DNA of 35,067 nucleotides from an uncultured Bdellovibrionales bacterium (GTDB lineage: Bacteria > Patescibacteriota > Minisyncoccia > Moranbacterales > UBA11712), in assembly GCA_964519445.1 (NCBI GenBank), contig CAZFIH010000004.1:1-35067 (forward strand), in the 5' to 3' direction. Under the pieces are notes generated by a model, which saw nothing but the letters and a program-made list of their open reading frames with translations, did no database searches and had not been told where the DNA came from. Made by a program: the position numbers and the translations under genes. Shown here piece by piece: positions 403 through 34,928 of this stretch (its first letter is position 1; each line of letters opens with the position of its first letter).

Positions 403-2469
403 TTATTTATTCCTCACTTTCAACGTCTTGGCATTCACAGCGACGATTACGGTACTCAAAGACATAAACACCGCGCCCACTGCAGGTGATAATAGAATTC
501 CGTACCCGGCCAAAACGCCGGCTGCCAGCGGAATCGCAAAGACATTATAGCCCGTCGCCCAGACGAGATTCTGGATCATTTTCCGGTAAGTCGCCCTCCC
601 AAAAAGAATCAGGGAGGCGATGTCCCGTGGGTTGCTGTTCACGAGAATGATATCCGCTGTCTCGGCTGCGATGTCGGTTCCGGAACCAATCGCGATTCCG
701 ACATCGGCCTGTGCCAGAGCTGGGGCATCGTTGATTCCGTCTCCGACCATCGCCACAAGCTCCCCTTTTCGCTGGAGCTCTTTCACTTTTTCCTGTTTTT
801 CATCGGGAAGCACTCCGGCGAAATAGCCGTTTATTCCCAATTCCTCAGAAACGGCTCTGGCGGAGTTTTCGTTGTCACCCGTCAGCATCCATATTTTTAT
901 ATTCTGCTTCTTGAGGGATTTCACGGCTTCGTGTGATTCCTCGCGGACAGTGTCGGCCAGATTTATGGCACCGGCAAGAATATCTTTTCCGTTTTCCGAA
1001 ACAACCGTGAGGATCAAGGTGCCCTCGACATTTTTCAAATCTTCGGGAATGTCGAAACCGAGCTCCTTGGCATACCCGGGGCTCACAACCATGGTCTTTT
1101 TTTCTTCGACTTCAGCTTCCACCCCTTTTCCTTTGAGCGCCCGGAAGCCGTTTATTTTTACTGTTTCAATATTTCGCTTTTTGGCTTCCTCGAGGACGGC
1201 TTTGGCAATCGGATGCTCGGAGTTTCTCTCAAGGCTCGCGGAAAGCTTGAGAATGTCGTTTTCGCCGTAATTGTCATCGAGTGAATAAATTTTCTTCACG
1301 CTGAATGTTCCCTCGGTCAAAGTTCCCGTCTTGTCGAAAATAACGGTTGAGACATTCCTCGAATTCTCAAAAGCCGTCCTGTTTCGGATAAGCAGACCGT
1401 TTTGAGCGGAAAGTATGGAGGAAATTGCCACGACGAGCGGTATGGCAAGTCCCAGGGCATGGGGACAGGTGATGACCAACACCGTAGCCGTCCTCTCGAT
1501 GGCAAAGGCGAGATCCCCTCTTGCCAAGAACCAGGAGACGAAAGTTATGGCCCCGACTGAAAGAGCGATTACTGTAAGCCAGAAAGCGGCCCTGTCGGCA
1601 ATGTTCTGCGTTTTGGACTTCGATGCCTGGGCGCCCCGCACGAGATTTATCACTTTCGAAAGATAAGATTTTTCACCCACTCCTTCCGCTTTCACCGTGA
1701 GGGATCCGTCCCCGTTCAAAGATCCGCCGATGACCTTGCCGCCTTTTCCTTTGGAAACCGGTTTTGATTCCCCTGTAACCAGCGATTCGTTAACGAAACT
1801 CTCGCCTTCGAGAATCGTACCGTCAACCGGGATTTTTTCTCCCGGCTTCACGAGAATCGTGTCACCTTGCTCGATTTCGCTGGTGGCCACATCAACAATT
1901 TCTTCTCCCTTCACGAGATGAGCTTTGTCTGGAATAAGTTGGGTAAGTTTTTCGAGGGCGCTCGAAGCCCCCATAACCGATTTCATTTCCATCCAGTGCC
2001 CGAGGAGCATAATGTCGATCAGGGTAACCAGCTCCCAGAAAAACAGTTTCCCTTCCAGCCCGAAGACTACCGCCGTGCTGTAGAAATAGGCTACCGCGAT
2101 GGCAATGGAAATAAGCGTCATCATCCCGATAGCCCGAAAGCGGATCTCGTCGTAAGCCCCTTTTAGGAATGGATAGCCTCCATAGAGAAATACGATCGTG
2201 GAAATAAGGAAAAGCACCATCCTGTCGCCCGGAAACTTCAGGGAAAATCCGAGAAATTGCTGGACAAGAGGAGAAAGCGCGAGAACCGGAACGGTCAAAG
2301 CCAAAGATACCCAGAATTTCTGCCGGAATTGGGCCACAGAGTGGCCAGCGTGCTTGTGAAAACCCCCTTCTCCGGGAGCGGGCCCTCCACAGCAACTATG
2401 CGAGGAGTGATTCATTTTTTCGTGAGCGGCATCCCGGCCGCTGCCGTGATTTTCATGATCGTGATTCAT
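403..2469 (-). CDS. copB: Copper-translocating P1B-type ATPase (CopB-like)
   Basis: His-rich N-terminus (MNHDHENH...), TGES, CPH transmembrane motif, DKTGT phosphorylation site, SEHP, GDGIND, YN and MSLS motifs. Start taken at ATG 2469. Confidence 0.92.
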   Translation of the reverse strand: MNHDHENHGSGRDAAHEKMNHSSHSCCGGPAPGEGGFHKHAGHSVAQFRQKFWVSLALTVPVLALSPLVQQFLGFSLKFPGDRMVLFLISTIVFLYGGYPFLKGAYDEIRFRAIGMMTLISIAIAVAYFYSTAVVFGLEGKLFFWELVTLIDIMLLGHWMEMKSVMGASSALEKLTQLIPDKAHLVKGEEIVDVATSEIEQGDTILVKPGEKIPVDGTILEGESFVNESLVTGESKPVSKGKGGKVIGGSLNGDGSLTVKAEGVGEKSYLSKVINLVRGAQASKSKTQNIADRAAFWLTVIALSVGAITFVSWFLARGDLAFAIERTATVLVITCPHALGLAIPLVVAISSILSAQNGLLIRNRTAFENSRNVSTVIFDKTGTLTEGTFSVKKIYSLDDNYGENDILKLSASLERNSEHPIAKAVLEEAKKRNIETVKINGFRALKGKGVEAEVEEKKTMVVSPGYAKELGFDIPEDLKNVEGTLILTVVSENGKDILAGAINLADTVREESHEAVKSLKKQNIKIWMLTGDNENSARAVSEELGINGYFAGVLPDEKQEKVKELQRKGELVAMVGDGINDAPALAQADVGIAIGSGTDIAAETADIILVNSNPRDIASLILFGRATYRKMIQNLVWATGYNVFAIPLAAGVLAGYGILLSPAVGAVFMSLSTVIVAVNAKTLKVRNK

Positions 2470-2560
2470 ATTCCTAATACTATTACAACTTGAGCCATCA
2501 ATAAAATGCAAAAAACCCAACAAATATTTGGTTTTCAAATAATCACGAAAGAGTTATTGA

Positions 2561-22159: not shown

Positions 22160-23119
22160 TCAAAAAATCAAATTGAAACCGTAGCCGATAAAAATCATCC
22201 CAATTGCCACAACCGCAAAAAAAGCAAAGAGCAACGGCAATTTCATAACTCTTTTGAGTATCAACGCTTCCGGAAGTGAAAGTCCCACCGTCGCCATCAT
22301 AAAAGCCATAGCCGTTCCCAGCGGTATTCCCTTGGCGACCAGAGACTGAATAACGGGGACTACTCCGCTGGCGTTGGAATAAAGCGGAACGGCGAGAATT
22401 ACCGCCAAGGGAACAGCCAAAGGATTTTCTTTGGTGATGTATTTTTCAAAGAATCCTTCAGGCACATAGCCGTGGATTACCGCCCCCACTCCCACTCCAA
22501 TCAGGACATACAATCCTATTTTTTTGGTAATCACGAGAGCCTCTTTGGAAACAAGTTTTGCCACTTGCCAGGAAAATCTTTTCTTTTCCTCTTTTCGAAT
22601 GTTATCTTTGGCTTTGATTTTCCAAACATATTCCTCCACGTATTTTTCCAGCTTCAGTTTTCCCAGAATTGCTCCGCCAATCATTCCGATTAAGATTCCC
22701 GCCACTGCGTAGATCAAAGTGACTTTCCAGCCAAAAAGTCCGATAAACAGGGTCAAGGCGACTTCATTAACCAAAGGTGAAGTTATGAGAAAAGCAAAAG
22801 TCACTCCGAGCGGTATGCCCGCTTCCACAAAACCGATAAAAAGAGGAATAGAGGAACAGGAACAAAAAGGCGTAATTGCTCCAAAAATTGTCGCCAGGAA
22901 ATAATCCAATCCGAAAAATTTATGCTTGGTCAGGAAATCTCTTAGCTTTTCAATCGGCAGATAATACCGAAGCAGGCTCATGAAATGAGTGATGACAAGC
23001 AATAGTAAGATTATTTTGATGCTGTCATAGACAAAGAAATTGATTGAATCTCCCAGTCTGGTATGTTCGATAAGCCCGAAAATATTATATGTCAGCCAAT
23101 CGGCAAATTGTTGGATCAT
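22160..23119 (-). CDS. arsP: ArsP-like (DUF318) permease
   Basis: TPFCSCSSIP, FLITSPLVNE, AVPLYSNA and LSLPE motifs; last gene of the ArsR operon. Confidence 0.82.
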   Translation of the reverse strand: MIQQFADWLTYNIFGLIEHTRLGDSINFFVYDSIKIILLLLVITHFMSLLRYYLPIEKLRDFLTKHKFFGLDYFLATIFGAITPFCSCSSIPLFIGFVEAGIPLGVTFAFLITSPLVNEVALTLFIGLFGWKVTLIYAVAGILIGMIGGAILGKLKLEKYVEEYVWKIKAKDNIRKEEKKRFSWQVAKLVSKEALVITKKIGLYVLIGVGVGAVIHGYVPEGFFEKYITKENPLAVPLAVILAVPLYSNASGVVPVIQSLVAKGIPLGTAMAFMMATVGLSLPEALILKRVMKLPLLFAFFAVVAIGMIFIGYGFNLIF

Positions 23120-23140: not shown

Positions 23141-23503
23141 TTAGTTTAATTTCAAATCTTCTTTTCGAGCTTCCAATTCTTCTCTGACTTTCGGAATGAG
23201 CTGGAAATCCTTGACTATTTCTTGGGCTTTTTCTCTGGTCTTGTCTTCTTCGGCGAAAGTGATCGCTTTGGCCGGACAAAGGTTAGCACAAGTCTGGCAA
23301 GCTACCATGCAATTATTCGGATTGGCAACTTTTGATTTTTTGTTTTCATAATCGAATTTATAAACGCCCCGCCCGCAAGAAGTAACACACATTCCGCAGC
23401 CGATACATTTATCTTCGTCCACTTCCGGATTCCATTGGATGTCTTGGCGATCCACACCGTGGAACTTGGCAAATTTCGGGTCTTGTTTTTGTTGTTCATT
23501 CAT
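23141..23503 (-). CDS. 2x[4Fe-4S] ferredoxin family protein
   Basis: CIGCGMCVTSC and CMVACQTCANLCP motifs. Start at MNEQQK. Confidence 0.9.
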   Translation of the reverse strand: MNEQQKQDPKFAKFHGVDRQDIQWNPEVDEDKCIGCGMCVTSCGRGVYKFDYENKKSKVANPNNCMVACQTCANLCPAKAITFAEEDKTREKAQEIVKDFQLIPKVREELEARKEDLKLN

Positions 23504-23525
23504 TGTTTTGAATTTAATTATTATT

Positions 23526-23837
23526 TTAATTTTTTGATCTGTCTTGTATTCCAAGAACAACTAAATTATCTAATGCTTTTATGCCTCTTATTTCATCTTT
23601 TTTCATATAAATGCTTTGATTTTTTGTTAAGGTAATTTCTCCATTAATATCAGTAAAAATTCCCTTGCCCTCAAGAACGGTTAAAAGTACAGCGTAATCT
23701 TCAGGGTGAGGCGGTATTTCCATGCCCGATTTCAAACAGATTAAAGCGGCATGAAAACCTTTAACGTTAAGAAAATGCTTTTTAATCGGTTTTTCGTCGG
23801 AAAAAATAATTTTTTCGTTTAGATTATAATTCTTCAT
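23526..23837 (-). CDS. Cupin-domain protein
   Basis: GMEIPPHP…VLEGKG cupin motif 1; 103 aa. Confidence 0.8.
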   Translation of the reverse strand: MKNYNLNEKIIFSDEKPIKKHFLNVKGFHAALICLKSGMEIPPHPEDYAVLLTVLEGKGIFTDINGEITLTKNQSIYMKKDEIRGIKALDNLVVLGIQDRSKN

Positions 23838-23843
23838 GATTTT

Positions 23844-24374
23844 TTAAATTTCGTTAATTTCAAATTTTTTATCTCGCAAATACCACTGCATAAAATATCC
23901 GACGGCGATAAATAGCGGCAGGGCAACCAGTGTTCGCGCGAGCGTGAATTTCAATCCCAGATAACCGATTTCAATGCCGAGCATAGGAATTTTAAGCGAT
24001 GAAAAAGCGCCCAGATAAATGAAAATATTTTTGATGCTGGCGCCTTTTTTGTAGAGAATGTAGGCCACCGGAAAAGCGCCGTAAAGAGGGCCCGCCTGAA
24101 GCATCGCCAAAATGATAACGGTGAAAATCCCTTTTATGCCGGAGTCTTGGCCGATATGTTTTTCTATTTTCTCTTTGGGAAACCAAACATCAAACAAACC
24201 GACAATGATAAATAAAAAAGGAATAAAGGTGATCATTTCAATAAATGACTCGGTGAAACTTTGGTAGATAGTTTTGCCCGGATCAAAACCAAATGAAAAA
24301 GAGCCGATAGCAAAAATCGCAAAGCTGAAAAGCCAAATATAAGGTTTTATTTTTTGCAAGTTTTTTTTGGTCAT
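23844..24374 (-). CDS. Small permease subunit (DUF318-like half-transporter)
   Basis: IEKHIG, AGPLYGAFP…KKGA and KIPMLGIE; paired with the adjacent half-size permease. Confidence 0.75.
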   Translation of the reverse strand: MTKKNLQKIKPYIWLFSFAIFAIGSFSFGFDPGKTIYQSFTESFIEMITFIPFLFIIVGLFDVWFPKEKIEKHIGQDSGIKGIFTVIILAMLQAGPLYGAFPVAYILYKKGASIKNIFIYLGAFSSLKIPMLGIEIGYLGLKFTLARTLVALPLFIAVGYFMQWYLRDKKFEINEI

Positions 24375-24853
24375 AAAATGATTCCGATTAAAATCCCGAT
24401 AATGATCGCTACGATAAAATTCAAGGCGTTTCTTAAGATCGCCACTTTTTTGCCGAAATACTTGATTTCCAAAGGCAAAGTGACAACACCGACCATCATC
24501 AGTGTCGTCATAAAAACTGCGACTGTAGAATAGGACGCGCCTTGCTTCAAGAGACCCGAAGCGATTGGATAGGAAATAAATCCGGGGATAAGAGTGATTG
24601 AACCGATAATCGCGGCAATCGCAAACCCGATTGCTCCCGAACCGACACCTAAATATTTCACGATCATCTGCGGCGGGACGATAAACAAAAGCAAACTGAC
24701 CAAAATCAAAATATTTAAAAATGGGATAACGATATTCCTGAACATTTTCCAGCCTTTCTTGAATCCTAAAATCGTCCTTTGTCTGTCCAGTAAGAATGAA
24801 ACCAAGCTGGTGAATATTGAAAAAGATATAAATATTAAAGCGTTATTCATCAT
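24371..24853 (-). CDS. Small permease subunit (DUF318-like half-transporter)
   Basis: IVKYLG, GSITLIPGFISYP…GA and TLPLEIKYFG; 4-nt overlaps with both neighbours. Confidence 0.75.
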   Translation of the reverse strand: MMNNALIFISFSIFTSLVSFLLDRQRTILGFKKGWKMFRNIVIPFLNILILVSLLLFIVPPQMIVKYLGVGSGAIGFAIAAIIGSITLIPGFISYPIASGLLKQGASYSTVAVFMTTLMMVGVVTLPLEIKYFGKKVAILRNALNFIVAIIIGILIGIIL

Positions 24854-25566
24854 AAACTAATTAAAAATTTTACAAGATATTGCGTATAGTATGCACCCGC
24901 CAAAAGAAAAATTGTTGCTACGCCGTATCGCATCACTTTTTCAATCTTTCCCATCGCGTTATACATCTTGCCCACTTTCTCCACACTGAACGCCAAAACA
25001 ATGGAAAAAATAATAACCGGTAAACCCGTCCCCAAGGCAAAAAGCGGCGGCAGAAGCAGACTTTCCGTCGATGAAAGAACCAACGGAACAAGCATCCCAA
25101 AGAATAAAACCCCGCTATAAGGACAAAATGCCAGAGCGAACAAAACTCCCAAAAGCAAGGTGCCGATGTGTCCTTTGGTTGCGAGCCACTCTTTCATTTT
25201 TTCCACCTTCTCGCTTTTTGAACCGAAGTTTATTTTAATCACCCCGAACATTACGAGAGAAATAAAAATCAGAACTATCCCCAAAACTTTGTCGCCCCAG
25301 CCCTGAAAAATGCCGGCAATCTGAAATGAAGAAAGTCCGAAATAAATTAGTGTCGCCAAAAGCGTATAACTTATTCCCCTGCCAAGGGTATAAATGAGAC
25401 CGCTGATGAGAGTGTGTTTGGCGGTTTTGATGTCTTTGGAAATGTAGGCGATAGCGGTGATGTTGGTCGCCAAGGGGCAGGGACTGATCGAGGTCATCAC
25501 GCCCAAAACAAAAGCGGAAAGAAGCGGAATATTATATTGGTCAATTAAGGTGTTTAGAAACTCCAT
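24850..25566 (-). CDS. arsG: ArsG-family (CcdA/DsbD-like) membrane protein
   Basis: SISPCPLATNITAI, YTLGR, LAFCPYSG and GTGLPV motifs. Confidence 0.8.
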   Translation of the reverse strand: MEFLNTLIDQYNIPLLSAFVLGVMTSISPCPLATNITAIAYISKDIKTAKHTLISGLIYTLGRGISYTLLATLIYFGLSSFQIAGIFQGWGDKVLGIVLIFISLVMFGVIKINFGSKSEKVEKMKEWLATKGHIGTLLLGVLFALAFCPYSGVLFFGMLVPLVLSSTESLLLPPLFALGTGLPVIIFSIVLAFSVEKVGKMYNAMGKIEKVMRYGVATIFLLAGAYYTQYLVKFLISL

Positions 25567-25600: not shown

Positions 25601-25858
25601 TTATGACAATGCCCTAAAAAGGTCAGCCGGACTAAAACCTATCACTCTTATATCTTTATCCTTCAGAAATTTAGTCAGTTCTTTATCTATGGAATCAATC
25701 TTTTTGCCGGATAAGAAATTTTCTATTTCAATAACCGCTTCTTCCGGATGAATAAAAAAATCTCCATTGATCGTAATTTTTTCAATCTCTGAATTATCGA
25801 TTCCGACTTTAATTCTTAGCAATTTACCGTTGGGTATTTTGTAAATTATTTTTCTCAT
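25601..25858 (-). CDS. Lipoate-protein ligase accessory (C-terminal) subunit, LplB-like
   Basis: KIPNGKLLRI and ITINGDFFIHPEEA motifs; adjacent to the ligase catalytic domain. Confidence 0.85.
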   Translation of the reverse strand: MRKIIYKIPNGKLLRIKVGIDNSEIEKITINGDFFIHPEEAVIEIENFLSGKKIDSIDKELTKFLKDKDIRVIGFSPADLFRALS

Positions 25859-25859
25859 A

Positions 25860-26615
25860 TCATCTCCAATAATTCCATTTATTACTGGTATATTTTTCTT
25901 TAAATAATCTATCGGCCTCTTTCAGCTCATCGGCCGTCAATTTTCCCCGAGTAATGGTTGTTTCAAAAACTTTTCGGAAGCCTTTCGTTAAGCTTCTCTC
26001 CAGCTCCTGACAAGAAATTTTACGCCCTAATTCTTTTTTTAATGAAGTAACCCGCTCTTCGACCGTCCGGATCAATTTGTCTTTTATTTTTTCATCCGGA
26101 ACTTTCAACACGGAAAACATTTTTTCCACATCGATATCCGTCAAAATAGTACCGTGTTGCAAAACTACTCCTGCTTTTCTGGTTTGAGCATTACCGGAAA
26201 TCTTTTTTTCACCGGCTAAGATATCATTTATCGGCTTAAATTTTGCCTTAATTCCCAACAAATTCAAACCTTCAATAATCCCGGCGCAGATTTGCCCATA
26301 AGATTCCACCACATCACTCGAAACTTCTTTTTCTGAAATCACCAAAGAATAAGTCAATTCACCCTCGTGAAAGACCGCGCCTCCCCCCGTATATCTTCTC
26401 ACCGCATCAACTCCCAACTCTTTGGCTTTGGCGACATCTACTTCTTCTTTTAAGTTTTGGAAAAATCCCACACTGACACAAGCCGGCTTCCACCTGTAAT
26501 ACCTCAACGTGTTCGGGACTTCTTTTCTGATGCGAGCCGCGAGAATGGCTTCATCAACAGCCATTTGCATCGCCCCCCTCGTTTCTATTGTTTCTATTGA
26601 TCTCCATTGGTTCAT
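25860..26615 (-). CDS. lplA: Lipoate-protein ligase catalytic domain (LplA-N/LipM family)
   Basis: MAVDEA, VRRYTGGGAVFH, NDI…KKISGNAQ and LQHGT motifs. Confidence 0.9.
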   Translation of the reverse strand: MNQWRSIETIETRGAMQMAVDEAILAARIRKEVPNTLRYYRWKPACVSVGFFQNLKEEVDVAKAKELGVDAVRRYTGGGAVFHEGELTYSLVISEKEVSSDVVESYGQICAGIIEGLNLLGIKAKFKPINDILAGEKKISGNAQTRKAGVVLQHGTILTDIDVEKMFSVLKVPDEKIKDKLIRTVEERVTSLKKELGRKISCQELERSLTKGFRKVFETTITRGKLTADELKEADRLFKEKYTSNKWNYWR

Positions 26616-27460
26616 GAACTTCCAGCAAAATTTTTAGCCTTATATGAGCTTCTGACCAAACTCCCCGCAACAGCCTTTTTTATTCCCAGCTTTTTTGCGA
26701 TTGACGCGATTTTTCCAAATTCATTCTCCCTGTAATATTTTTTTACCGAGAGATGGGACGAGCTTGGCCGTAAATATTGGCCGACCGTTAAGATATCGCA
26801 GCCTGTTTTTTTCAAGTCTCTTAATGTTTCAATGATCTGCTTCTCTGTTTCTCCCATTCCCACCATGAAACCCGACTTGGTTTTCATCTCGGGAGAGATC
26901 TCTTTGACTTTTTTGAGCAACCTTAAAGACATTTCGTAATCCCCTTTTGGCCTGACCGACCCGAAAATATCGGCAACGGTTTCCAGATTATGGTTAATGA
27001 CATCCGGCCCTGCTTTCACTATCTTTGCGAGAACCGGCCAATTGCCTCGCAAATCGGAAATCAAAATTTCAATTTTGCATTCAGGAGATTTTCTTTTTAT
27101 TGCTTTAATCGTCTTGACAAACTGCCCTGCTCCGCCGTCCGACAAATCATCCCTGGCAACACAAGTTATCACCGCGTAATCAAGCCCCATCCTTTTGACA
27201 GCGGCCGCGATTCTTTCCGACTCGGCTGAATCAACCGCCTTGGGTTGTCCCTTTTTAATATTGCAGTAAGCGCAATTCCGAGCGCAGACATCGCCCAAAA
27301 TCATAAAGGTGGCGGTGCCGCAAGAAAAACATTCGTAACGATTGGGGCAGTTGGCTTCCTGACAGACCGTAACCAAGCTGTGCTTATCAATAACATCTAA
27401 TGTTTCTTGATACCGCTTTTTGTCATAATTTTTTATCCTTATCCAATCAGGCAAAGTCAT
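26612..27460 (-). CDS. lipA: Lipoyl synthase (radical SAM)
   Basis: CQEANCPNRYEC (CX4CX5C), CARNCAYC, RDDLSDGGA, NHNLET, GQYLRP and RSSY. Confidence 0.96.
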   Translation of the reverse strand: MTLPDWIRIKNYDKKRYQETLDVIDKHSLVTVCQEANCPNRYECFSCGTATFMILGDVCARNCAYCNIKKGQPKAVDSAESERIAAAVKRMGLDYAVITCVARDDLSDGGAGQFVKTIKAIKRKSPECKIEILISDLRGNWPVLAKIVKAGPDVINHNLETVADIFGSVRPKGDYEMSLRLLKKVKEISPEMKTKSGFMVGMGETEKQIIETLRDLKKTGCDILTVGQYLRPSSSHLSVKKYYRENEFGKIASIAKKLGIKKAVAGSLVRSSYKAKNFAGSS

Positions 27461-27464
27461 AGTT

Positions 27465-27734
27465 TTATGAAAACACTGTATTTATTTCTATTAATTCAAT
27501 CATTGCCTCATAAGTTGTTTCTTTTGCCCCGGCATTGTTTTTCAATCCGCGTAAAACCAAATCATTTTTCAAAACTAAAATTTCCATTTTTTTGTCTGCG
27601 GCTGATTTTATTAAATTATTATTTTGATTGTGGACAAGCAAAGTTCCATCTTGAATGAGAATAATTTTATCGCCTTCTTCCATGAACCGAAAAATTCCTT
27701 GGTTTTGATTGTTTGATTTGACTATAAAAAGCAT
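27465..27734 (-). CDS. DsrH/TusB-like protein
   Basis: ILIQDG and DLVLRGL motifs; third gene of a DsrEFH-like trio. Confidence 0.8.
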   Translation of the reverse strand: MLFIVKSNNQNQGIFRFMEEGDKIILIQDGTLLVHNQNNNLIKSAADKKMEILVLKNDLVLRGLKNNAGAKETTYEAMIELIEINTVFS

Positions 27735-27738
27735 GGTT

Positions 27739-28092
27739 TTAAAAATTAATAATGACCTCGGACGATCTGACCAAATTTTTTATTTTCAGAACGGAAAGGA
27801 TTTTTACCGGTTCGATTTCCTCTTCTGAAATTCTATTTTCCTGCAAACTCTCCTTGTCCGCAAAAATTTTTAAGCCAAATTCTTCGGCGTTAGACAGGCC
27901 TTCTTTAATACTGCCGGCGCCAATCTTTTCCGGCTTTTGATTTTTCAACAAAGAAAAAACGCCCGATCCGCTGAAAAGAAGCTTTGTATCCAGATCCATG
28001 CCGGAAAAAGCAACGCCGGCCCGCACCGCTTCGGCCGGGAAAACAGTGCCGATGGGCGGATTATTTACGATTATCAAAACTTTTTTTGCCAT
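27739..28092 (-). CDS. DsrF/TusC-like protein (no Cys)
   Basis: PPIGT…EAVR, GVFSLLKNQ and ESLQENRI pattern. Confidence 0.78.
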   Translation of the reverse strand: MAKKVLIIVNNPPIGTVFPAEAVRAGVAFSGMDLDTKLLFSGSGVFSLLKNQKPEKIGAGSIKEGLSNAEEFGLKIFADKESLQENRISEEEIEPVKILSVLKIKNLVRSSEVIINF

Positions 28093-28103
28093 ATATTTTA
28101 TGG

Positions 28104-28448
28104 TTAGATATTAATAAATTTATCGCATTCATTTACCATGTCAGCCAGTCCAGGCAGGCCCTCAAGCTCGCCCGCCGGCAGCAGCTGATTGCGCTTTATA
28201 CCGCGGAATTGCACGCAGACTCCGCAAATCTTAATCTCCGCGCCTAAGCCGGATAATTCTTCCATCCTTTGATATAAATTTCTTTCTTTTGACGAATTCA
28301 AATCCTTATTTACGGCGATAACACTATCTATGTAAAGAAAAATTTTCACCTGATGTTTTTTAGCGATTGCCGCCTTGCTTAAATAATAAAGAGTATCAAT
28401 GTCTTGGTATGTATAAGGCGGCCGTGTGACTAAAAATCCTATTGTCAT
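28104..28448 (-). CDS. DsrE/TusD-like sulfurtransferase
   Basis: RPPY, IFLYIDSV and ICGVCVQFRGI with the conserved active-site Cys. Confidence 0.85.
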   Translation of the reverse strand: MTIGFLVTRPPYTYQDIDTLYYLSKAAIAKKHQVKIFLYIDSVIAVNKDLNSSKERNLYQRMEELSGLGAEIKICGVCVQFRGIKRNQLLPAGELEGLPGLADMVNECDKFINI

Positions 28449-28462
28449 ATTTTTTATGTTTT

Positions 28463-28527
28463 ACCCTGTTAGAAATTTTAAATAAAGCAGAAAAAAATAA
28501 TAAAATGCCTAAAATTTCTAACAGGGT
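28463..28527. repeat. 18-bp perfect inverted repeat
   Basis: ACCCTGTTAGAAATTTTA (28463-28480) / TAAAATTTCTAACAGGGT (28510-28527), with a 29-nt spacer. Confidence 0.9.
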
Positions 28528-29552
28528 TAATTGTTTCTAATAAATAAAAAGTAAGCCATAGTCCAGCCGCCGAGAATTATAAAAATACCCGCCACTAGAC
28601 TGGAGATGGCTAGTTGTGGAATACCGCTTAAAATATGGCCGATATTGCAGCCGTCGGCAACAACCGCGCCGAACCCCATCAAAACGCCGCCGGCCAAAGA
28701 TTGCCAGGCTATCCTAGGCCTTGGGAAACGGAATTTAAATTCCCCGGCAATAAACGAACCCAAAAATGCGCCAAAAACAAGGCCTATCACCTCAAACGAT
28801 TCCCATGTTAAAAAATTTTCGAAACGGATGATTGATTTCAAAATCGTTTCAAAACCCATGGTTATACCGAGGGCATAGTTGCGCCCGGAAAGGGAAGAAA
28901 AAACGAAAGCCAAGAGTCCAATGAGCCCGATAGCTAATCCGGCGCTTTGCCATGACCAGCCTTTTTTAAAAATATCAGATATCAAACCGACCCTTTCGTC
29001 TTTTGGGACGGAATATTTAATTTTGTTTCTTTTTTGTCCAAACAATAACCAAAAAATTAAAACTGAAAAAAAGGCAATCCAAAATATATTCGGCAAACCG
29101 GTTATAGAGCCCAGAGTCAAAGAACCTAAACCATAACTCTGGGCGACTGCGGTCAATCCGGATAAAATTCCGTCCTTAGCCAGATAGGCCGCGCCGACAA
29201 ACCCGAACAAAGCCAGCCAAGAACCTATCATTCCTTCCCCGACTCGATAAGCAGTGCCGCTGGCGCAACCGCCGGCTATCGCCATCCCCACCCCAAACAC
29301 ATAAGCGCCCAGAGGCACGGCCAGCCAATAAAACAACTTTGGGTTATATTCTATTAATCCAATAGAATTAAGAACATAAAATCCAACCAATTCAATCCCA
29401 AGAGCCAAGCCAACCGCCTTGAGCAGTGTAAAATCTTTAAAAACTAAAGGATCGCGAAACGCTGAATTCATGCAAAAACGTCCCCGCTGGAGCGCAAATC
29501 CGAAAATAACTCCAATTGCCAAACCGCTAATAATTGTAAAAACCATTGGCAT
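28527..29552 (-). CDS. YeeE/YedE family sulfur-compound (thiosulfate) transporter
   Basis: QRGRFC, AGGCASG and DGCNIGH: the three conserved Cys motifs. Confidence 0.92.
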   Translation of the reverse strand: MPMVFTIISGLAIGVIFGFALQRGRFCMNSAFRDPLVFKDFTLLKAVGLALGIELVGFYVLNSIGLIEYNPKLFYWLAVPLGAYVFGVGMAIAGGCASGTAYRVGEGMIGSWLALFGFVGAAYLAKDGILSGLTAVAQSYGLGSLTLGSITGLPNIFWIAFFSVLIFWLLFGQKRNKIKYSVPKDERVGLISDIFKKGWSWQSAGLAIGLIGLLAFVFSSLSGRNYALGITMGFETILKSIIRFENFLTWESFEVIGLVFGAFLGSFIAGEFKFRFPRPRIAWQSLAGGVLMGFGAVVADGCNIGHILSGIPQLAISSLVAGIFIILGGWTMAYFLFIRNN

Positions 29553-29559
29553 AGGACGA

Positions 29560-29814
29560 TTATTTAACTTGTATCAAAAGACGATGATCCGGTCCATTAT
29601 CAATTTTTTCCAACTTCAAAAATTTGTGCCCTTCTTTTTCACTGTTTCGCGGAATGCGCTCCAAAGACAAGGGATAATCGGTTAAGACCTCTAAAATTTG
29701 GCCGGAGCTCATTTCCTTTAATTTTTTTCTGGCCTTAATGTCTGGATAGGGGCAGATTTCCCCGCGAACATCCAGACTCTCGTCAATTTGGCAAGCATTT
29801 TTATCTTCAGTCAT
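29560..29814 (-). CDS. TusA/YeeD/SirA family sulfur carrier
   Basis: LDVRGEICPYP and GQILEVLTD motifs. Start at MTEDK. Confidence 0.9.
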   Translation of the reverse strand: MTEDKNACQIDESLDVRGEICPYPDIKARKKLKEMSSGQILEVLTDYPLSLERIPRNSEKEGHKFLKLEKIDNGPDHRLLIQVK

Positions 29815-29836
29815 ATTTTTTATTGTTATTTTTTTA

Positions 29837-30301
29837 TTAAAGCTTGGTCCCCGGATCCGTACAGTCCTGCTCAACGCAAAGCTTGATTCTGGCTTCCATT
29901 TCCGCTTTCATGCCGTTAGAAAATCCGACGAACGGCTCTCCTTCGCCAATAAAAGTCGTCGGAACGCCTTGCGCGGTTGTGCCGTAAGCCTTTGCCATCT
30001 CTTGAAAAAGCGCGGCGTTATCCTTGCTTTTCCAGGTTTCAAATTCTTTAACAGCCAAATCGGGATATTTACGCTTCATCTCATCCAAAAATGGTTTCTC
30101 AGTCGCGCAATGCGGACAGCCGTCTCCCCAGAAAAAATATATCGTCACTTTGCCTTCAGTGTCACTAATTTCGGCAACCTGATTTTCCTCCGAATAAGCA
30201 CTTTCCAATGATGTGTTTTCTTTCCGGTTTTCGGAAGAACAGCCGGAAAAAATGAGAAGTACTCCCGCCAGCAATCCTATTGATAAATAAATTTTTTTCA
30301 T
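29837..30301 (-). CDS. Thioredoxin/glutaredoxin-like lipoprotein
   Basis: Lipobox FSGC, WGDGCPHC and GVPT cis-Pro loop. Confidence 0.85.
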   Translation of the reverse strand: MKKIYLSIGLLAGVLLIFSGCSSENRKENTSLESAYSEENQVAEISDTEGKVTIYFFWGDGCPHCATEKPFLDEMKRKYPDLAVKEFETWKSKDNAALFQEMAKAYGTTAQGVPTTFIGEGEPFVGFSNGMKAEMEARIKLCVEQDCTDPGTKL

Positions 30302-30311
30302 AAAACCAAGT

Positions 30312-30728
30312 TTACTGATTATCGTTATTTTTCTTCATGCCTGAATCCACCCACTTTTGAGCCTCATCAGCCTTTAACAATTTTTGAACCTCTGATTGAT
30401 CGGAAATTTTTATTTTGGCGATCCAGCCCTCATCATACGGACTTTTGTTGATAACAGAAGGCTTGTCAAAAAGCGGGTCATTAACTTCAATTACTTCTCC
30501 GGAAAGCGGGCTTCCCAGATGGCCGCTCCATTTAAGCGCTTCCAGAGAAACATAAGTTTCTCCCCTTTTAAGCGCCTGTCCTTCTTTCGGTAACTTGATA
30601 AACACGAATTCCTTTACCTTGTCCGCGGCGGGTTTAATTACGCCCAGCACCGCAGTGTCATTCTCGATGCGCGCCCAAGAATAGTCCCTGTTATAAAATA
30701 AATTATTCGGCAAATTATTGTTTGTCAT
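30312..30728 (-). CDS. GcvH-like lipoyl carrier protein (stand-alone)
   Basis: YSWAR, FIKLP, LEALKW (lipoyl-Lys position), SPLSGEVIEVN and INKSPYDEGWI. Confidence 0.88.
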   Translation of the reverse strand: MTNNNLPNNLFYNRDYSWARIENDTAVLGVIKPAADKVKEFVFIKLPKEGQALKRGETYVSLEALKWSGHLGSPLSGEVIEVNDPLFDKPSVINKSPYDEGWIAKIKISDQSEVQKLLKADEAQKWVDSGMKKNNDNQ

Positions 30729-30731
30729 AGA

Positions 30732-32525
30732 TTATTCCTTATTTTTGTTAATAATATCATTTTGTTCGCCAGTATTATTTTCACTTTCTTTTGATGCCTC
30801 GGGCGTGAGCAAATTTTCTTCCGTGCCAACTTTAACTCCAAATCTTGGCAGAATTTTGCGGTGGATGAACAGAATCAAAAGAGAAACAGCAATCGCAACA
30901 ACAAAAACCAATAAAGAAGTGCTTATATTATTCATCAAATCCGGATTAATAAACATTACCAATGCCAGCGCCAGCATAATCATACCGCCGATTAACTTCA
31001 GGATGCGCCCGTGTTTTTCTTCAAAACGGCTTGCTTTCAGCGTTAAGGTGGCAGCTCCCACAACTACCATCTCATCTAAAAGGTAAATCAAAAGATATAA
31101 CAATAAAAGCAAAGCAAAGACTGTTCCTTGTATATGATTTTGGGCGATTATATTAGTCCAGATTACCGGAAAACCGGCTGTGCAGGGAAGTTCTACCAGC
31201 ACCACACCCAAAGCCATAGCGGCTGTGGCAAGCACCATTCCCCAGGTTGATTTGTCGCCTTTCATAATACCCCGCGCGTCTTTAAATATTTTTGGCTTAT
31301 ATTTGTCGGATATCGTAAAAGATATACCTTTTTTATACCAAAAATAATCTTTAATATTAACAAGGGCAAAAGTAAGAGCAAGCAGGGCCACTGCGATTTG
31401 AATCCATCTTAAATAACCGATATACAGGAATACGTTCAAAAGCCCAACCATAAACAAACCGTAAGCGATCGTGGTTACCAAAAGAAAGGTTAGGCCGACC
31501 AAAAATATTTTCTTTCTTGAGCCGGAATGAATCACCATTCCCAAAAGAAAAGCAATCAGCCACAAAGAACAGGGATTAAAACCGTCAACAAAAGCGATAA
31601 TAACCGTTGTTACAAAAAGCGGCGTAGAGGAAAGATCAATTTCGCCCACAATCGGAAATTTTATTTTTTCCTGCGCTTCGGGAGTGATATCTGTTGATTG
31701 GGGCAAAAAAGGAGTAAATCCTTTAATATTTTCCAACGGACAAATGCAACCTTCTTTTTGGCACGAAATTATTTCCCTTTCCAAATAATCTTTGATTGTT
31801 GTTTCTCCTATATAATATCTGTCGCCTAAAAATACAATCGGATAAGAAGCTGTTACCAATCCATATTTTTCTTTAAATGATTGATATAACCGATTCTCTT
31901 CCTCAAGCCCGACATCGTGCTTTTTTATAATTAAGCCGTATTTTTGTTCCAGGTTTTGCAGAAAATTACTTATATCCGAGCATTGGGGGCAGTCTTCTTT
32001 ATAAAACAAGTGCAGACAAAGTTCATCCCGGGCTTGATTTGACTGAGAATCAATATTTTCTTTTTCGTCGAATTCTTTGTTTGATGTAATAGAAGAAATT
32101 GCCGACTCCGGTTCCGTCTCTTCTTCAATTCCGGCTTTTACCCCGGGACTGATACAGCCATTTTCCAAACAATCAACTATCTTTTTTTCAATATCCTCCG
32201 CCATATAATCGGCGTAACCGACGATTGGCTCAAAGTCCCCGATAAAAGTTGTCGGCACTCCCCGGGCATGGATGCCGTATGCCTCGGCGACTTCTTGGAA
32301 TAATTCGGCATTTTCTTGGTTGTTCCAAGTTTCAAAACTTTTTACTTCCAAATCAGGATATTTTTCTTCCATTTTTTCCAAGAATGGTTTTTCCACGGCG
32401 CAGTGAGGGCAACCATCGCCCCAGAAGAAATATATCACTGTTTTCTCCGCGGCACTTACCTGATTTATTCCAACTAATAAGCAGATGAAAATCAGGATCG
32501 AAATAATTATTTTCTTAGTGAGCAT
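30732..32525 (-). CDS. Two glutaredoxin-like domains fused to a CcdA/DsbD-like membrane domain
   Basis: Signal peptide; CPHC and CPQC domains; DGFNPCS and ELPCTAG transmembrane Cys pair. Confidence 0.85.
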   Translation of the reverse strand: MLTKKIIISILIFICLLVGINQVSAAEKTVIYFFWGDGCPHCAVEKPFLEKMEEKYPDLEVKSFETWNNQENAELFQEVAEAYGIHARGVPTTFIGDFEPIVGYADYMAEDIEKKIVDCLENGCISPGVKAGIEEETEPESAISSITSNKEFDEKENIDSQSNQARDELCLHLFYKEDCPQCSDISNFLQNLEQKYGLIIKKHDVGLEEENRLYQSFKEKYGLVTASYPIVFLGDRYYIGETTIKDYLEREIISCQKEGCICPLENIKGFTPFLPQSTDITPEAQEKIKFPIVGEIDLSSTPLFVTTVIIAFVDGFNPCSLWLIAFLLGMVIHSGSRKKIFLVGLTFLLVTTIAYGLFMVGLLNVFLYIGYLRWIQIAVALLALTFALVNIKDYFWYKKGISFTISDKYKPKIFKDARGIMKGDKSTWGMVLATAAMALGVVLVELPCTAGFPVIWTNIIAQNHIQGTVFALLLLLYLLIYLLDEMVVVGAATLTLKASRFEEKHGRILKLIGGMIMLALALVMFINPDLMNNISTSLLVFVVAIAVSLLILFIHRKILPRFGVKVGTEENLLTPEASKESENNTGEQNDIINKNKE

Positions 32526-32543: not shown

Positions 32544-33197
32544 TTACAAAGCAGAGTTGATTTCGGCTATTATTTCCGCGTTGCATTCCGAAGGACAATA
32601 AAGAGTCGGCTGTCTGGACAGTCTCACTCTTTCTCCGCTCCCTTCTAAAAGATGAACAATATCAGCCCTGGAATAATCCGTATTCTCCCAAGATGTAACC
32701 GCTATGCCTTTTTCAAGATATTGATAAATGTCATTGACTTTTTCTATTTTTTCAACCGGAAAACTGTTTTTAATCAAATCAACATCCAAGTCCGTATAAA
32801 TCTGATAGTCTTTTAATTCACTCTCTTGGATAGAAAATTCTTGGGAACCGATAAATGAAAATCCTCTGTCGATTACCACTCCTTCCATCCGCGGCTCGTT
32901 GTATTTCAGTGTCCGGCCGGCCAACACAAAATCTGCTCGTTTGTTTTCCATCAACTCAACGCTTTCGGATGTGGATCGAGTAGCAATAATTTGATATTTT
33001 TGGGAATCTAGCTTTTCGGCTATCTCCCGGCAAGTCGGGCAAGCGGCAATGATTATTTTCCTTCGCGTTTTATCAATATTATTATCAATCGAGCTTATTT
33101 CGTTTTCTTTTTCTTTATTTTTGCCGATAACAATCAGCAAAACAAAGGCTGACAAAATAAGAAGTGAAATTATTTTAGTTTTATCCAATCGTAGCAT
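32544..33197 (-). CDS. Hypothetical exported protein with CPTC motif, possible type-II binding-protein fold
   Basis: N-terminal TM, ACPTC, STSESVELMENKRADFVLAGR and C-terminal CPSEC. 1-nt overlap with the upstream gene. Confidence 0.65.
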   Translation of the reverse strand: MLRLDKTKIISLLILSAFVLLIVIGKNKEKENEISSIDNNIDKTRRKIIIAACPTCREIAEKLDSQKYQIIATRSTSESVELMENKRADFVLAGRTLKYNEPRMEGVVIDRGFSFIGSQEFSIQESELKDYQIYTDLDVDLIKNSFPVEKIEKVNDIYQYLEKGIAVTSWENTDYSRADIVHLLEGSGERVRLSRQPTLYCPSECNAEIIAEINSAL

Positions 33198-34018
33198 TAA
33201 CTTATTTTTTGTTTAAAAAAATCAATGATGTCTTTTTCATTTGTGTGGCATTTTCCATCCGCCCAGAGAAACGGGACGCCGAATGATTCCAGATCGACGT
33301 CGCACTGCATCGCGTCGTTGCCCAGCTGTTCCAGATCGGCTTCGCTTTCGCTGATGTTTTTTTCTTCAAAATCAAGTTTGTCTCTCACGCCGTTTTGCTG
33401 GAAATACTTTTCAATGTTGGCGCAACCGGGGCAATTATCACCTGAATAAAAAGTAATGTCCTCGCTTTCCGGCTCTTTTTGCGCTTCCGCCGATACCGTT
33501 TCGCCAATCATTCCGCGTATTTTCTCCGAAAGATAATCGGAAAAAGCCTGCTTGTTTCCCAAAAGCCTCCACGCTTGCACCTCTTCCCTGATATTATCCT
33601 CACCGTCAATAATGGCGTTCAAAAAAAGTGATGAACCGACCGCTTTGAATTTCTTCGCCACCTCCCTATTTTCCGGCAAATCGACGTTGATCTCCCGAAA
33701 TTCAATTTTTCCGTCTTTGAGTTCCGGCGCGAAGTTTTCGTCAACCGTCGCTTTGGCATATTGCCCCATTATTACGCAGGCATAACAGCGAGCAGTCGAA
33801 TGAAAGGCGTAAACTTGGACTTTTTCCGCCGGCTTAGTCTCTTGAGCTTCGGATTTTTGCGAACTTTTTTGTGTATTGGAATCACTTGACTGCGTTTTTT
33901 TGTCCGGACCAAAATTGGCGTAAATAACGGCAATAGCTGCTATCAAAACGGCGCCGTAGAGTAAATATATTCCTAATTTTTTCACCCCGTTAGAAATTTC
34001 TTTTTTGTTGTTTTCCAT
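33197..34018 (-). CDS. arsF: ArsF-family thioredoxin-fold protein with an extra C-terminal glutaredoxin domain
   Basis: VYAFHSTARCYAC…INVDLPEN…GSSLF, then YSGDNCPGC…GVPFL. Start at MENNKK. Confidence 0.72.
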   Translation of the reverse strand: MENNKKEISNGVKKLGIYLLYGAVLIAAIAVIYANFGPDKKTQSSDSNTQKSSQKSEAQETKPAEKVQVYAFHSTARCYACVIMGQYAKATVDENFAPELKDGKIEFREINVDLPENREVAKKFKAVGSSLFLNAIIDGEDNIREEVQAWRLLGNKQAFSDYLSEKIRGMIGETVSAEAQKEPESEDITFYSGDNCPGCANIEKYFQQNGVRDKLDFEEKNISESEADLEQLGNDAMQCDVDLESFGVPFLWADGKCHTNEKDIIDFFKQKIS

Positions 34019-34064
34019 AATTTTCAGATATTTCCCCGTTATATTTGGCAATTTCTAACGGGGT
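33984..34064. repeat. 15-bp inverted repeat enclosing the arsF start codon
   Basis: ACCCCGTTAGAAATT (33984-33998) / AATTTCTAACGGGGT (34050-34064), with an internal partial copy CCCCGTTA at 34034. Confidence 0.9.
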
Positions 34065-34070
34065 AAATGA

Positions 34071-34334
34071 TTATTTGGAAAGGATAGATTTGATTTCTTC
34101 CACATCGGGAATTCTTCCCGAAGCTTCAACTTTTTCATCAACGACCAAAGCCGGCGTTCCCATTACGCCGTAGCTCATAATATCCTGGATTTCGGTTACT
34201 TTTTCAATATCCGCTTTCATTTTCAATTCCCCTAACGCTTGCCTCGTGTTGGCTTCCAGTTTTTGGCAATTGGGACAGCCCGTTCCCAAAATTTTGATGG
34301 TCACCCCGTTAGAAATTTTTTTATCATCTGGCAT
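34071..34334 (-). CDS. Small redox-active disulfide protein (MTH895/Thioredoxin_3 family, ArsE-like position)
   Basis: IKILGTGCPNC and YGVMGTPALVVD motifs. Confidence 0.88.
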   Translation of the reverse strand: MPDDKKISNGVTIKILGTGCPNCQKLEANTRQALGELKMKADIEKVTEIQDIMSYGVMGTPALVVDEKVEASGRIPDVEEIKSILSK

Positions 34335-34393: not shown

Positions 34394-34612
34394 TTATTTG
34401 GTTAATTTTATCGGATTGCATAAATTTTCTTTCTTATTTGCCAGCCTTCCACAGCAACGGCAGACATATTGCGGATTATTCACCAATGGAAGTATTTTAT
34501 CCATATCGAACTGATTATGCGGCTTGGCAAGCTCACAAAGTTTGTTTTCCCTATTGTTGTTCCCGCAACCGCAACCGCAGGAACTGCTAGTATCGCAACA
34601 ATTGTTTGCCAT
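34394..34612 (-). CDS. Small Cys-rich protein (10 Cys in 72 aa)
   Basis: CC, CGCGC, LC, CRCC and LCNP; starts 4 nt after the arsR stop. Confidence 0.75.
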   Translation of the reverse strand: MANNCCDTSSSCGCGCGNNNRENKLCELAKPHNQFDMDKILPLVNNPQYVCRCCGRLANKKENLCNPIKLTK

Positions 34613-34616
34613 AAAT

Positions 34617-34928
34617 TCAGTCTTTGATTATTTGATTGAATAAAGCCTTGTATTGCTTCAGGACTTTTTGATTGACGCTGTAAATAATGAAGGCGCTTTC
34701 TTTTCTTTTTTCAAGCAAGGATAGTTTTTCCAATTTAGATAAATGGTGGGAAACCAAATTCTGCGGCAACTCCAACACTCCGAAGATTTCACAAACGCAA
34801 AGCTCCTTCTTCGTCAGAAGGCACAAAATCCTCAAACGATTGGTGTCCGAGATTGTTTTCAGAAATTCCTTTAGCTCAAGGATTCCTCGCATCCCACCGG
34901 AACCTTTCCCACAGCAATATTTGGCCAT
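34617..34928 (-). CDS. arsR: ArsR/SmtB family transcriptional repressor
   Basis: SDTNRLRIL, ELCVCEI, QNLVSHHLSKL helix-turn-helix, and an N-terminal CC pair. Confidence 0.92.
   Translation of the reverse strand: MAKYCCGKGSGGMRGILELKEFLKTISDTNRLRILCLLTKKELCVCEIFGVLELPQNLVSHHLSKLEKLSLLEKRKESAFIIYSVNQKVLKQYKALFNQIIKD

Follow-up and report, generated by a model that had tools for sequence, protein, structure and literature searches.

Here we show that a GcvH-like protein encoded on a 35,067-nucleotide stretch of contig CAZFIH010000004.1 (assembly GCA_964519445.1; this whole stretch is called the window below) is not an H-protein of glycine cleavage, and that, judged by its sequence, it belongs to a small distinct clade in bacteria of the candidate phyla radiation (CPR) and in DPANN archaea. 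Its gene is flanked by thioredoxin (Trx) genes, above all by an upstream gene that fuses Trx domains to a membrane domain (the Trx-membrane protein); the gene order of related loci supports these neighbours as its conserved functional partners, a role that an earlier sequence-only reading of the same DNA had missed. The reading that we favour, at a probability of roughly 55%, is that the protein serves as a dedicated carrier whose lipoyl arm, cycling between dithiol and disulfide, feeds a CcdA-like thiol relay across the membrane.

The open reading frame (ORF) of the GcvH-like protein begins with ATG, with an AAGGA about 9 nt upstream. The Pfam family GCV_H covers residues 11-127 of the product at E 1.8e-33, a match far beyond chance. 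The sequence-only reading had pointed to a lysine kept in an LEALKWSGHL context and to the lack of cysteine, and both points hold: the motif starts at residue 62, end-to-end alignment with the pea and Thermotoga H-proteins places K66 at their lipoyl-lysine position, this lysine is invariant in two sets of 33 and 25 aligned sequences, and the count of Cys residues is zero. An AlphaFold2 (AF2) model with a predicted local distance difference test (pLDDT) score of 87.6 superposes on solved H-proteins with template-modelling (TM) scores of 0.85-0.92, a root-mean-square deviation (rmsd) of 1.2-1.5 Å and 33-37% identity, and Foldseek matches it to 1ONL at E 2.2e-13 (TM 0.85/0.92). As modelled, the protein retains the H-protein fold with an altered cavity chemistry.

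The partners that glycine cleavage requires are missing. In the source genome (992,136 bases in 90 contigs, estimated 98.69% complete), profile searches found a single GCV_H match, no match to GCV_T, to GDC-P or to the HdrB-type CCG domain, and none to Biotin_lipoyl over its cut-off. Five other genomes with a relative of the protein (G301-G305) gave the same result for GCV_T (0/5) and GDC-P (0/5), and their lipoyl-domain matches consisted of the GcvH-like gene itself in three genomes and one weak partial match. The gene had been described as an orphan; this is apt with regard to GcvT and GcvP, both at zero in the genome, and misleading in that the gene belongs to a conserved cassette.

The cavity residues point the same way. 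According to an excerpt of Zhang et al. 2020 (PMC7733448), Glu-12, His-13 and Glu-14 of the E. coli H-protein hold the aminomethyl-lipoyl arm, which on its release passes over Ser-67, Asp-68 and Tyr-70. These positions were compared in an alignment of 223 H-like proteins, with 112 rows carrying the canonical motif and 84 rows of the clade. Before the conserved Trp, canonical rows have H (105/112) and E (89/112), whereas clade rows have Y (73/84) and S (77/84); after the Lys, canonical rows have S (83/112), D/E (96/112) and Y/F (85/112), and clade rows G (84/84), H (78/84) and S/G (69/84), although positions 67-69, including the 84/84 glycine, define the clade label and only the remaining cavity columns are independent. 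The window protein has D15-Y16-S17 and G69-H70-(L)-G72 in place of the E. coli residues, and by alignment the residues that would cradle an aminomethyl arm are replaced.

Canonical glycine cleavage is rejected on two grounds, the absent partners and the replaced cavity residues. Like canonical GcvH proteins (e.g., 1ONL, 1HTP, 3A7A), the window protein has the same Pfam family, the same fold and a putative lipoyl-lysine at the same hairpin. Unlike them, it shows the cavity pattern Y-S...G-H..S/G instead of H-E...S-D..Y, it is less acidic (isoelectric point, pI, 5.9 against a canonical median of 4.1), and its gene lies within a thiol-redox cassette in a genome without P or T proteins. Of five defining features of canonical GcvH that were tested, the protein has the domain with its fold and the lysine at the hairpin tip, and it fails the other three, namely the TIGR00527 equivalog model, the P and T partners and the cavity residues. 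An ordinary H-protein, whether working in glycine cleavage with divergent partners, in lipoyl relay to E2 or as an aminomethyl-H-protein for [FeFe]-hydrogenase maturation, is therefore extremely improbable: the protein does clear NF002270, the GcvH subfamily model of NCBIfam (123.1 bits, cut-off 117), and its structural model superposes on H-proteins within 1.2-1.5 Å, but the equivalog cut-off is not reached (101.6 bits against 115.85), the aminomethyl-cavity residues are replaced, and searches of the source genome and the five relatives turned up neither GcvT nor GcvP nor another lipoyl-domain protein.

A word-indexed search with the protein returned 108 relatives, with the motif EA[LVI]KWSGH in those at 50-82% identity and with Patescibacteria, Aenigmatarchaeota, Nanoarchaeia and Woesearchaeota as hosts where the source names them. 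K66, W67, S68 and G69 do not vary among 25 clade members, and H70 hardly does. An exhaustive search of 1.84 billion representatives yielded 7869 proteins at E <= 0.001 and only 6 at E <= 1e-30. A quick maximum-likelihood (ML) tree search with SH-aLRT branch support (223 rows of 134 columns, limited to proteins of 115-160 amino acids (aa)), which compares motif-defined groups and has no bona fide LbpA or GcvH-L sequences among its rows, placed 83/84 KWSG rows on one side of a branch (support 89, under the 95 mark), with ten other rows nested on that side, 108/112 canonical rows on the opposite side and a K-W-x-G group in an intermediate position. The clade has a median pI of 5.17 (n=77) against 4.14 for canonical GcvH (n=72), and 63/77 clade proteins have no Cys. 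Of 300 further genomes sampled from the phylum, only five had a match, each at 30-36% identity and none clade-like, so the cassette is sporadic. The sequence-only reading had proposed a further functional class with its own ligase and synthase, which fits the branch split, the missing GcvT, GcvP and CCG proteins and the presence of LipA, LplA and LplB in the array; grouping with canonical GcvH together with gcvPT in the genome, the result named there as speaking against the proposal, is not what we found.

Other relatives have architectures of their own. A second GcvH-like group of about 143 aa with ESGKW[VL]G (P0088-P0093, P0120 and others; one source label reads Actinomycetia) lies between the clade and canonical H-proteins in the tree, and 15/18 of its members lack Cys. 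The top-scoring match of the exhaustive search, P0110, comes from outside the window and is a 1391-aa protein that combines three GCV_H domains with FAD_binding_4/FAD-oxidase_C, two CCG domains and a 4Fe-4S dicluster, an architecture of lipoyl carriers fused to a GlcD/HdrD-like oxidoreductase. A further protein, P0119, has two GCV_H domains.

The 62 related loci were found by a pattern scan, with one genome per species, and come from both small-genome bacteria and archaea (by record titles; some taxon labels look automatic); many of them end at contig edges, and all cassette counts given here are lower bounds. Two loci begin at the GcvH-like gene and two are without an ORF call; of the 58 that can be assessed, 55 have the Trx-membrane gene as the immediate upstream same-strand neighbour. 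By tblastn with the window proteins, the Trx-membrane protein is matched in 58 and Trx in 56 of the 62 loci (the two queries share a domain, and these counts are not independent), LplA in 44, LipA in 32 and LplB in 31. Clustering of ORFs gave LplA in 47 loci, a flavoprotein in 40, LipA in 32, LplB in 30, a membrane HTH-like 164-aa protein in 22, an AhpD-like CMD protein in 13 and DUF169 in 12. The flavoprotein is a 440-aa pyridine-nucleotide-disulfide oxidoreductase that scores best against the CoA-disulfide reductase (CoADR) model (264.7 bits; lipoamide dehydrogenase 116.3; all under their cut-offs), and the CMD proteins carry the AhpD core domain (59.2 bits against a cut-off of 27.8) with the motif CxxCxxxH. 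Most often the genes follow one another as [regulator], Trx-membrane, GcvH-like, [Trx], [CMD or DUF169], flavoprotein, LipA, LplA, LplB, and in many loci the Trx gene after the GcvH-like gene encodes a protein of about 150 aa. CMD and DUF169 take the same slot after the GcvH-like or Trx gene and never occur together (L003-L064); DUF169 may be a functional alternative to an AhpD-type client.

Full-text searches with coverage of few subscription journals brought up no publication that pairs a lipoyl protein with a CcdA/DsbD-like relay or describes how CPR or DPANN organisms use lipoate; in Tanabe et al. 2023, DPANN phyla come up only for their lack of LipS1/S2.

The upstream partner has a signal-peptide-like N-terminus, matches to Pfam Thioredoxin, Glutaredoxin and TraF, and a membrane domain with two conspicuous cysteines, Cys319 in helix 1 (NPC) and Cys448 in helix 4 (PCTAGFP). 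Among 28 aligned homologues D314, N317, P318, C319, C448, G451 and P453 are invariant, as are N390, K392, D393, K399, G400, S402 and R418 of a long K/R-rich loop. In the AF2 model of this domain (pLDDT 76) the first and fourth of seven helices are broken exactly at the two cysteines. From the signal peptide and the positive-inside rule we infer that the Trx domains face outward and that the positive loops and the tail are cytoplasmic. The sequence-only reading had placed the GcvH-like gene between two exported CPHC thioredoxin genes, and the motif is indeed present in both (residue 39 upstream, residue 62 downstream).

The known CcdA, DsbD and ScsB relays take their electrons from cytoplasmic thioredoxin. 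Like them, the Trx-membrane protein has two essential-looking cysteines in helices 1 and 4 of its membrane domain, a predicted N-out topology and exported thioredoxin-fold clients, some of them fused to the membrane domain as in DsbD and ScsB. Unlike these relays, it has a seventh helix and a long invariant cytoplasmic loop, the membrane domain gave no significant hit to DsbD families at the sequence level, and a lipoyl H-protein is encoded in thioredoxin's place. An alignment of the modelled membrane domain with CcdA (5VKV) by VIA-align covered 188/224 residues at Z 8.1 and rmsd 4.2 (rank 3), and a language-model protein atlas placed the domain near SfLAP/DsbD_TM clusters (0.85-0.90), which serves as a lead only. 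On sequence and model, the layout of the domain appears CcdA/DsbD-like, while kinship to CcdA is unproven. A complex prediction that paired the GcvH-like protein with the membrane domain (C-terminal part, its residues 1-285) gave 0.01 against a mark of 0.32; run with no controls, it counts neither for nor against the proposal.

In the mechanism that we propose, LplA/LplB would attach octanoate or lipoate to K66 of a cytoplasmic carrier and LipA would insert the sulfurs into the bound arm, which could then alternate between disulfide and dithiol. The arm would trade electrons with the C319/C448 pair of the Trx-membrane protein, and cytoplasmic reducing power would thereby reach the Trx domains of the fusion as well as the Trx lipoprotein of the downstream gene; this direction of flow is the one suggested by generally known redox potentials. 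In most relatives NAD(P)H would restore the arm through a flavoprotein of the CoADR/Nox type encoded next to it, with an AhpD-like protein as a presumed second client in the cytoplasm. As for an extracytoplasmic sink, the search of the source genome returned a single MsrA frame without a signal peptide.

Several observations weigh against this proposal. Gene adjacency is no proof of binding, and the adjacent membrane gene is missing in 3/58 assessable loci. For the membrane domain, Pfam at E up to 10 gave no DsbD match and only DUF202, hhalign of the Trx-membrane family with the window's own DsbD_2 family gave a probability of 0.25%, Foldseek against the PDB gave nothing at E <= 0.001, and 5VKV, at Z 8.1, shares its score with unrelated helical proteins. 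The oxidase DsbA has CPHC at its active site, so the exported Trx domains may have an oxidising role. In the source genome, tblastn with representatives of the flavoprotein, CMD, DUF169, the HTH-membrane protein and a 160-aa lipoprotein gave no match at E <= 1e-3, and the flavoprotein, CMD and DUF169 partners of the relatives were thus not found there. The only Pyr_redox_2 protein of that genome is TrxB-like (319.6 against a cut-off of 343.45); this reductase, with a CPTC motif, is encoded elsewhere (G000:C65, locus L065 1456-3487) in a row with a WCGPC thioredoxin and an exported thioredoxin-like protein of 201 aa that has CPHC and a C-terminal anchor. Together with the window's separate CcdA/DsbD_2 protein, such a TrxB-TrxA pair could serve exported thioredoxins without any lipoyl protein.

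The CMD and flavoprotein genes raise the alternative of a purely cytoplasmic antioxidant hub, in which a lipoyl protein recharged by the flavoprotein or by TrxB/TrxA would reduce AhpD-like or peroxidase-type clients and the Trx-membrane gene would merely be co-regulated in a thiol-stress regulon. There are precedents: in excerpts of PMC12440151, M. tuberculosis AhpD is reduced by protein-bound lipoate (the Lpd-DlaT-AhpD-AhpC relay), lipoyl-GcvH/E2 figures among the natural reductants of thioredoxins and peroxidases, and Trichomonas hydrogenosomal H and L proteins, cited there, work with OsmC. Like these relays, the protein studied here would use protein-bound lipoate, outside metabolic complexes, as a dithiol reductant of thioredoxin-like or AhpD-type clients; unlike them, the reductase of its relatives is CoADR/Nox-like and not Lpd or L-protein, the main partner is a membrane protein, and the hosts have no other lipoyl enzyme. 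CMD is present in 13/62 loci and the CoADR/Nox-like flavoprotein in 40/62, and three loci combine GcvH-like, CMD and flavoprotein genes without an adjacent membrane gene. We nevertheless regard a cytoplasmic hub as quite unlikely, given that the membrane gene is a far more constant neighbour (55/58) than CMD and lies only a few bases from the GcvH-like gene in many loci (3 nt here), and that profile and tblastn searches of the source genome found no CMD, no flavoprotein and no match over cut-off to the peroxiredoxin class except thioredoxin-like frames.

The window's own version of the cassette lies in a minus-strand array of 22 ORFs that runs from 34928 (ArsR) to 22160 (end of a permease) with gaps of at most 78 nt (Table 1); 10 nt separate the GcvH-like gene from the Trx lipoprotein gene. 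LipA carries CX4CX5C at residue 33, CX3CX2C at 59 and RSSY at 270. Of the split ligase, LplB passes its NCBIfam model (71 against a cut-off of 65) and LplA does not pass LplA_large (226 against 480). The best promoter-like site on the minus strand, at 34963-34935, lies just upstream of ArsR, with promoter-like sites overall no commoner than in shuffles. A search of sequencing runs for the window returned no RNA run, and five DNA runs from two studies with word shares <= 0.34.

Table 1. Features of the minus-strand array, with positions counted from the first base of the window
Feature	Position	Strand	Characteristics
ArsR-type regulator	34617-34928	-	ELCVCE; N-terminal YCCGKG
Very Cys-rich ORF	34394-34612	-	72 aa; no Pfam or NCBIfam family matched
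Thioredoxin_3	34071-34334	-	
ArsF-family + Grx-like protein	33197-34051	-	284 aa; CPGC; ArsF 112.3 bits against cut-off 60
Protein with no family	32544-33197	-	217 aa
Trx-membrane fusion	30732-32525	-	597 aa; exported Trx with CPHC-39; second Trx/Grx-like domain with CPQC-179; 7-helix membrane domain
GcvH-like, putative lipoyl carrier	30312-30728	-	138 aa; K66 in EALKWSGH; 0 Cys; pI 5.88
Thioredoxin-fold lipoprotein	29837-30301	-	154 aa; lipobox-like FSGC; CPHC-62; weak Pfam Thioredoxin_2, Redoxin, AhpC-TSA
TusA-like sulfur carrier	29560-29874	-	CPYP at residue 41; Pfam TusA 2.1e-20; NCBIfam YedF-like 67.5 bits (under cut-off)
YeeE/YedE-type sulfur-compound transporter	28527-29552	-	Pfam Sulf_transp 5.8e-83
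DsrE-like (TusD-like)	28104-28448	-	Pfam DsrE 6.7e-22
DsrF-like (TusC-like)	27739-28092	-	Pfam DsrE 7.1e-15
DsrH-like (TusB-like)	27465-27734	-	Pfam DsrH 5.1e-12
LipA, canonical lipoyl synthase	26612-27460	-	TIGR00510 348.1 against 310.25; LipS2 only 37.6 against 270
LplA, split lipoate-protein ligase	25860-26615	-	Pfam LplA-B_cat 1.6e-53 (split ligase)
LplB, split lipoate-protein ligase	25601-25858	-	
Separate CcdA/DsbD_2-type membrane protein	24850-25566	-	238 aa; Pfam DsbD_2 3.8e-19
ArsP_1-type ORF	24371-24853	-	160 aa; profile positions 17-134 of 294
ArsP_1-type ORF	23844-24374	-	176 aa; profile positions 7-139 of 294
HgcB-like 4Fe-4S ferredoxin	23141-23560	-	
SaoE-like permease	22160-23119	-	120.8 bits, under cut-off

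In the slot that the flavoprotein takes in other loci, the window and three relatives (L004, L005, L062) carry TusA, YeeE and DsrEFH genes; in a fifth case (L014) the block from TusA to DsrH lies 5 kb upstream, and LipA follows DsrH directly in 5/5 cases. From this adjacency, it is a possibility that the sulfur relay supplies sulfur for the sacrificial cluster of the lipoyl synthase. For the carrier in this window, the arm would presumably be coupled to thiosulfate- or persulfide-derived sulfur via TusA-DsrEFH, or be recharged by TrxB/TrxA.

The same genes are the basis for a different view, an LbpA-like sulfur carrier whose arm would receive or reduce sulfane sulfur imported by YeeE and passed on by TusA and DsrEFH, for example releasing sulfide from a thiosulfate-derived persulfide for assimilation or for LipA's sacrificial cluster, with the thioredoxin neighbours secondary. 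The position of the five sulfur genes between the GcvH-like/Trx pair and LipA in the window and the three relatives speaks for it, and so does the higher pI of the clade, which an excerpt of Kumpel et al. 2026 (bioRxiv) gives as an LbpA-like trait tied to the discrimination of GcvH from LbpA by the ligase. However, tblastn found TusA, YeeE, DsrE, DsrF and DsrH in only 4/62 loci each, and for this reason the sulfur relay cannot define the clade's function; moreover, the TusA and DsrEFH matches are all under NCBIfam cut-offs (for the trio, those of every TusD/C/B model), no sHdr/CCG protein was found in the source genome, and the two conserved Cys of LbpA (excerpt of PMC6067878) are absent. We consider a sulfur carrier of this kind unlikely.

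Comparison with described stand-alone carriers gives a similar picture. Like LbpA of the sHdr system, as presented in an excerpt of Cao et al. 2018 (PMC6067878), the protein is a stand-alone GcvH-like carrier with dedicated maturation genes in the same cluster, and in this window it shares TusA/DsrE-type neighbours and a less acidic surface. Unlike LbpA, it has no Cys, no linkage to shdr or HdrB-type CCG genes (none in the genome or among 19 window neighbours), a canonical LipA in place of LipS1/LipS2 as its synthase, and the Trx-membrane protein as its constant partner. Against four features of LbpA taken from that excerpt, the Cys, the shdr linkage and the maturation by sLpl(AB) with LipS1/LipS2 fail, and the TusA/DsrE sulfurtransferases are present in the array, but in only 4/62 related loci; on the features that fail, we reject LbpA membership. 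GcvH-L of the SirTM/macrodomain operons (S. pyogenes 5A35, S. aureus; excerpt of PMC12440151) is likewise a paralogue of GcvH that has a ligase of its own and serves in oxidative-stress defence rather than in glycine cleavage. No sirtuin or macrodomain Pfam family was found among the 19 array proteins scanned, host range and partners differ, and the structural match to GcvH-L (E 6e-8, 22% identity) is weaker than to canonical H-proteins.

Arsenite classically targets lipoate in its dithiol form, and the array opens with an ArsR regulator bearing ELCVCE and an N-terminal Cys pair, the Cys-rich 72-aa ORF and an ArsF domain, with ArsP_1-type ORFs further on. This raises the idea, in line with the As(III)-binding assay suggested in the sequence-only reading, that within an ArsR-controlled resistance island the reduced lipoyl arm buffers or carries As(III) or some other thiophilic metal by chelation, which we judge very unlikely: by tblastn, ArsR, an ArsP-type permease and an ArsF-like protein are found in only 15, 13 and 5 of the 62 loci (a separate CcdA/DsbD_2 protein in 6), which makes the support peripheral, ArsR-family regulators also sense sulfane sulfur (excerpt of PMC12423496), and the constant partners have no link to As chemistry.

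Some features of the island deserve mention in their own right. The ArsR regulator and the Cys-rich ORF suggest a sensor of thiophilic metal(loid)s or sulfane sulfur with a small metal- or thiol-binding protein. The ArsF-Grx fusion, the HgcB-like ferredoxin and the SaoE-like permease are, as we take it, reminiscent of organoarsenical arsEFG-type genes. The two ArsP_1-type ORFs overlap by 4 nt and could form a two-piece or a duplicated half-size permease. Elsewhere in the window, a 711-aa ORF (403-2538, minus strand) has CPH and DKTGT motifs by eye and looks like a heavy-metal P-type ATPase.

Returning to the carrier that feeds a transmembrane relay, a more specific version can be formulated, which we put forward tentatively and at somewhat less than even odds: a lipoyl H-protein would replace thioredoxin as the cytoplasmic partner of a CcdA-like two-Cys relay and drive surface thiol chemistry, as the single job of lipoate in these minimal cells, with recharge by a CoADR-like flavoprotein in most lineages and, here, coupling to imported thiosulfate or persulfide sulfur via TusA-DsrEFH.

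The known places of lipoate are five metabolic complexes and sHdr sulfur oxidation, besides a few antioxidant side-roles. If the proposal is true, organisms of about 1 Mb without those complexes keep a full lipoate assembly for one small carrier, and should that carrier feed a transmembrane Cys relay, CcdA/DsbD-type systems would have a new electron donor. The cassette is compact, which leaves the claim open to direct in vitro test. From the standpoint of the organisms, the proposal would give a function to a membrane protein family outside Pfam, would explain the surface thiol chemistry of CPR bacteria and DPANN archaea attached to other cells and, in the variant found in this window, would link environmental sulfur directly to the redox state of the envelope.

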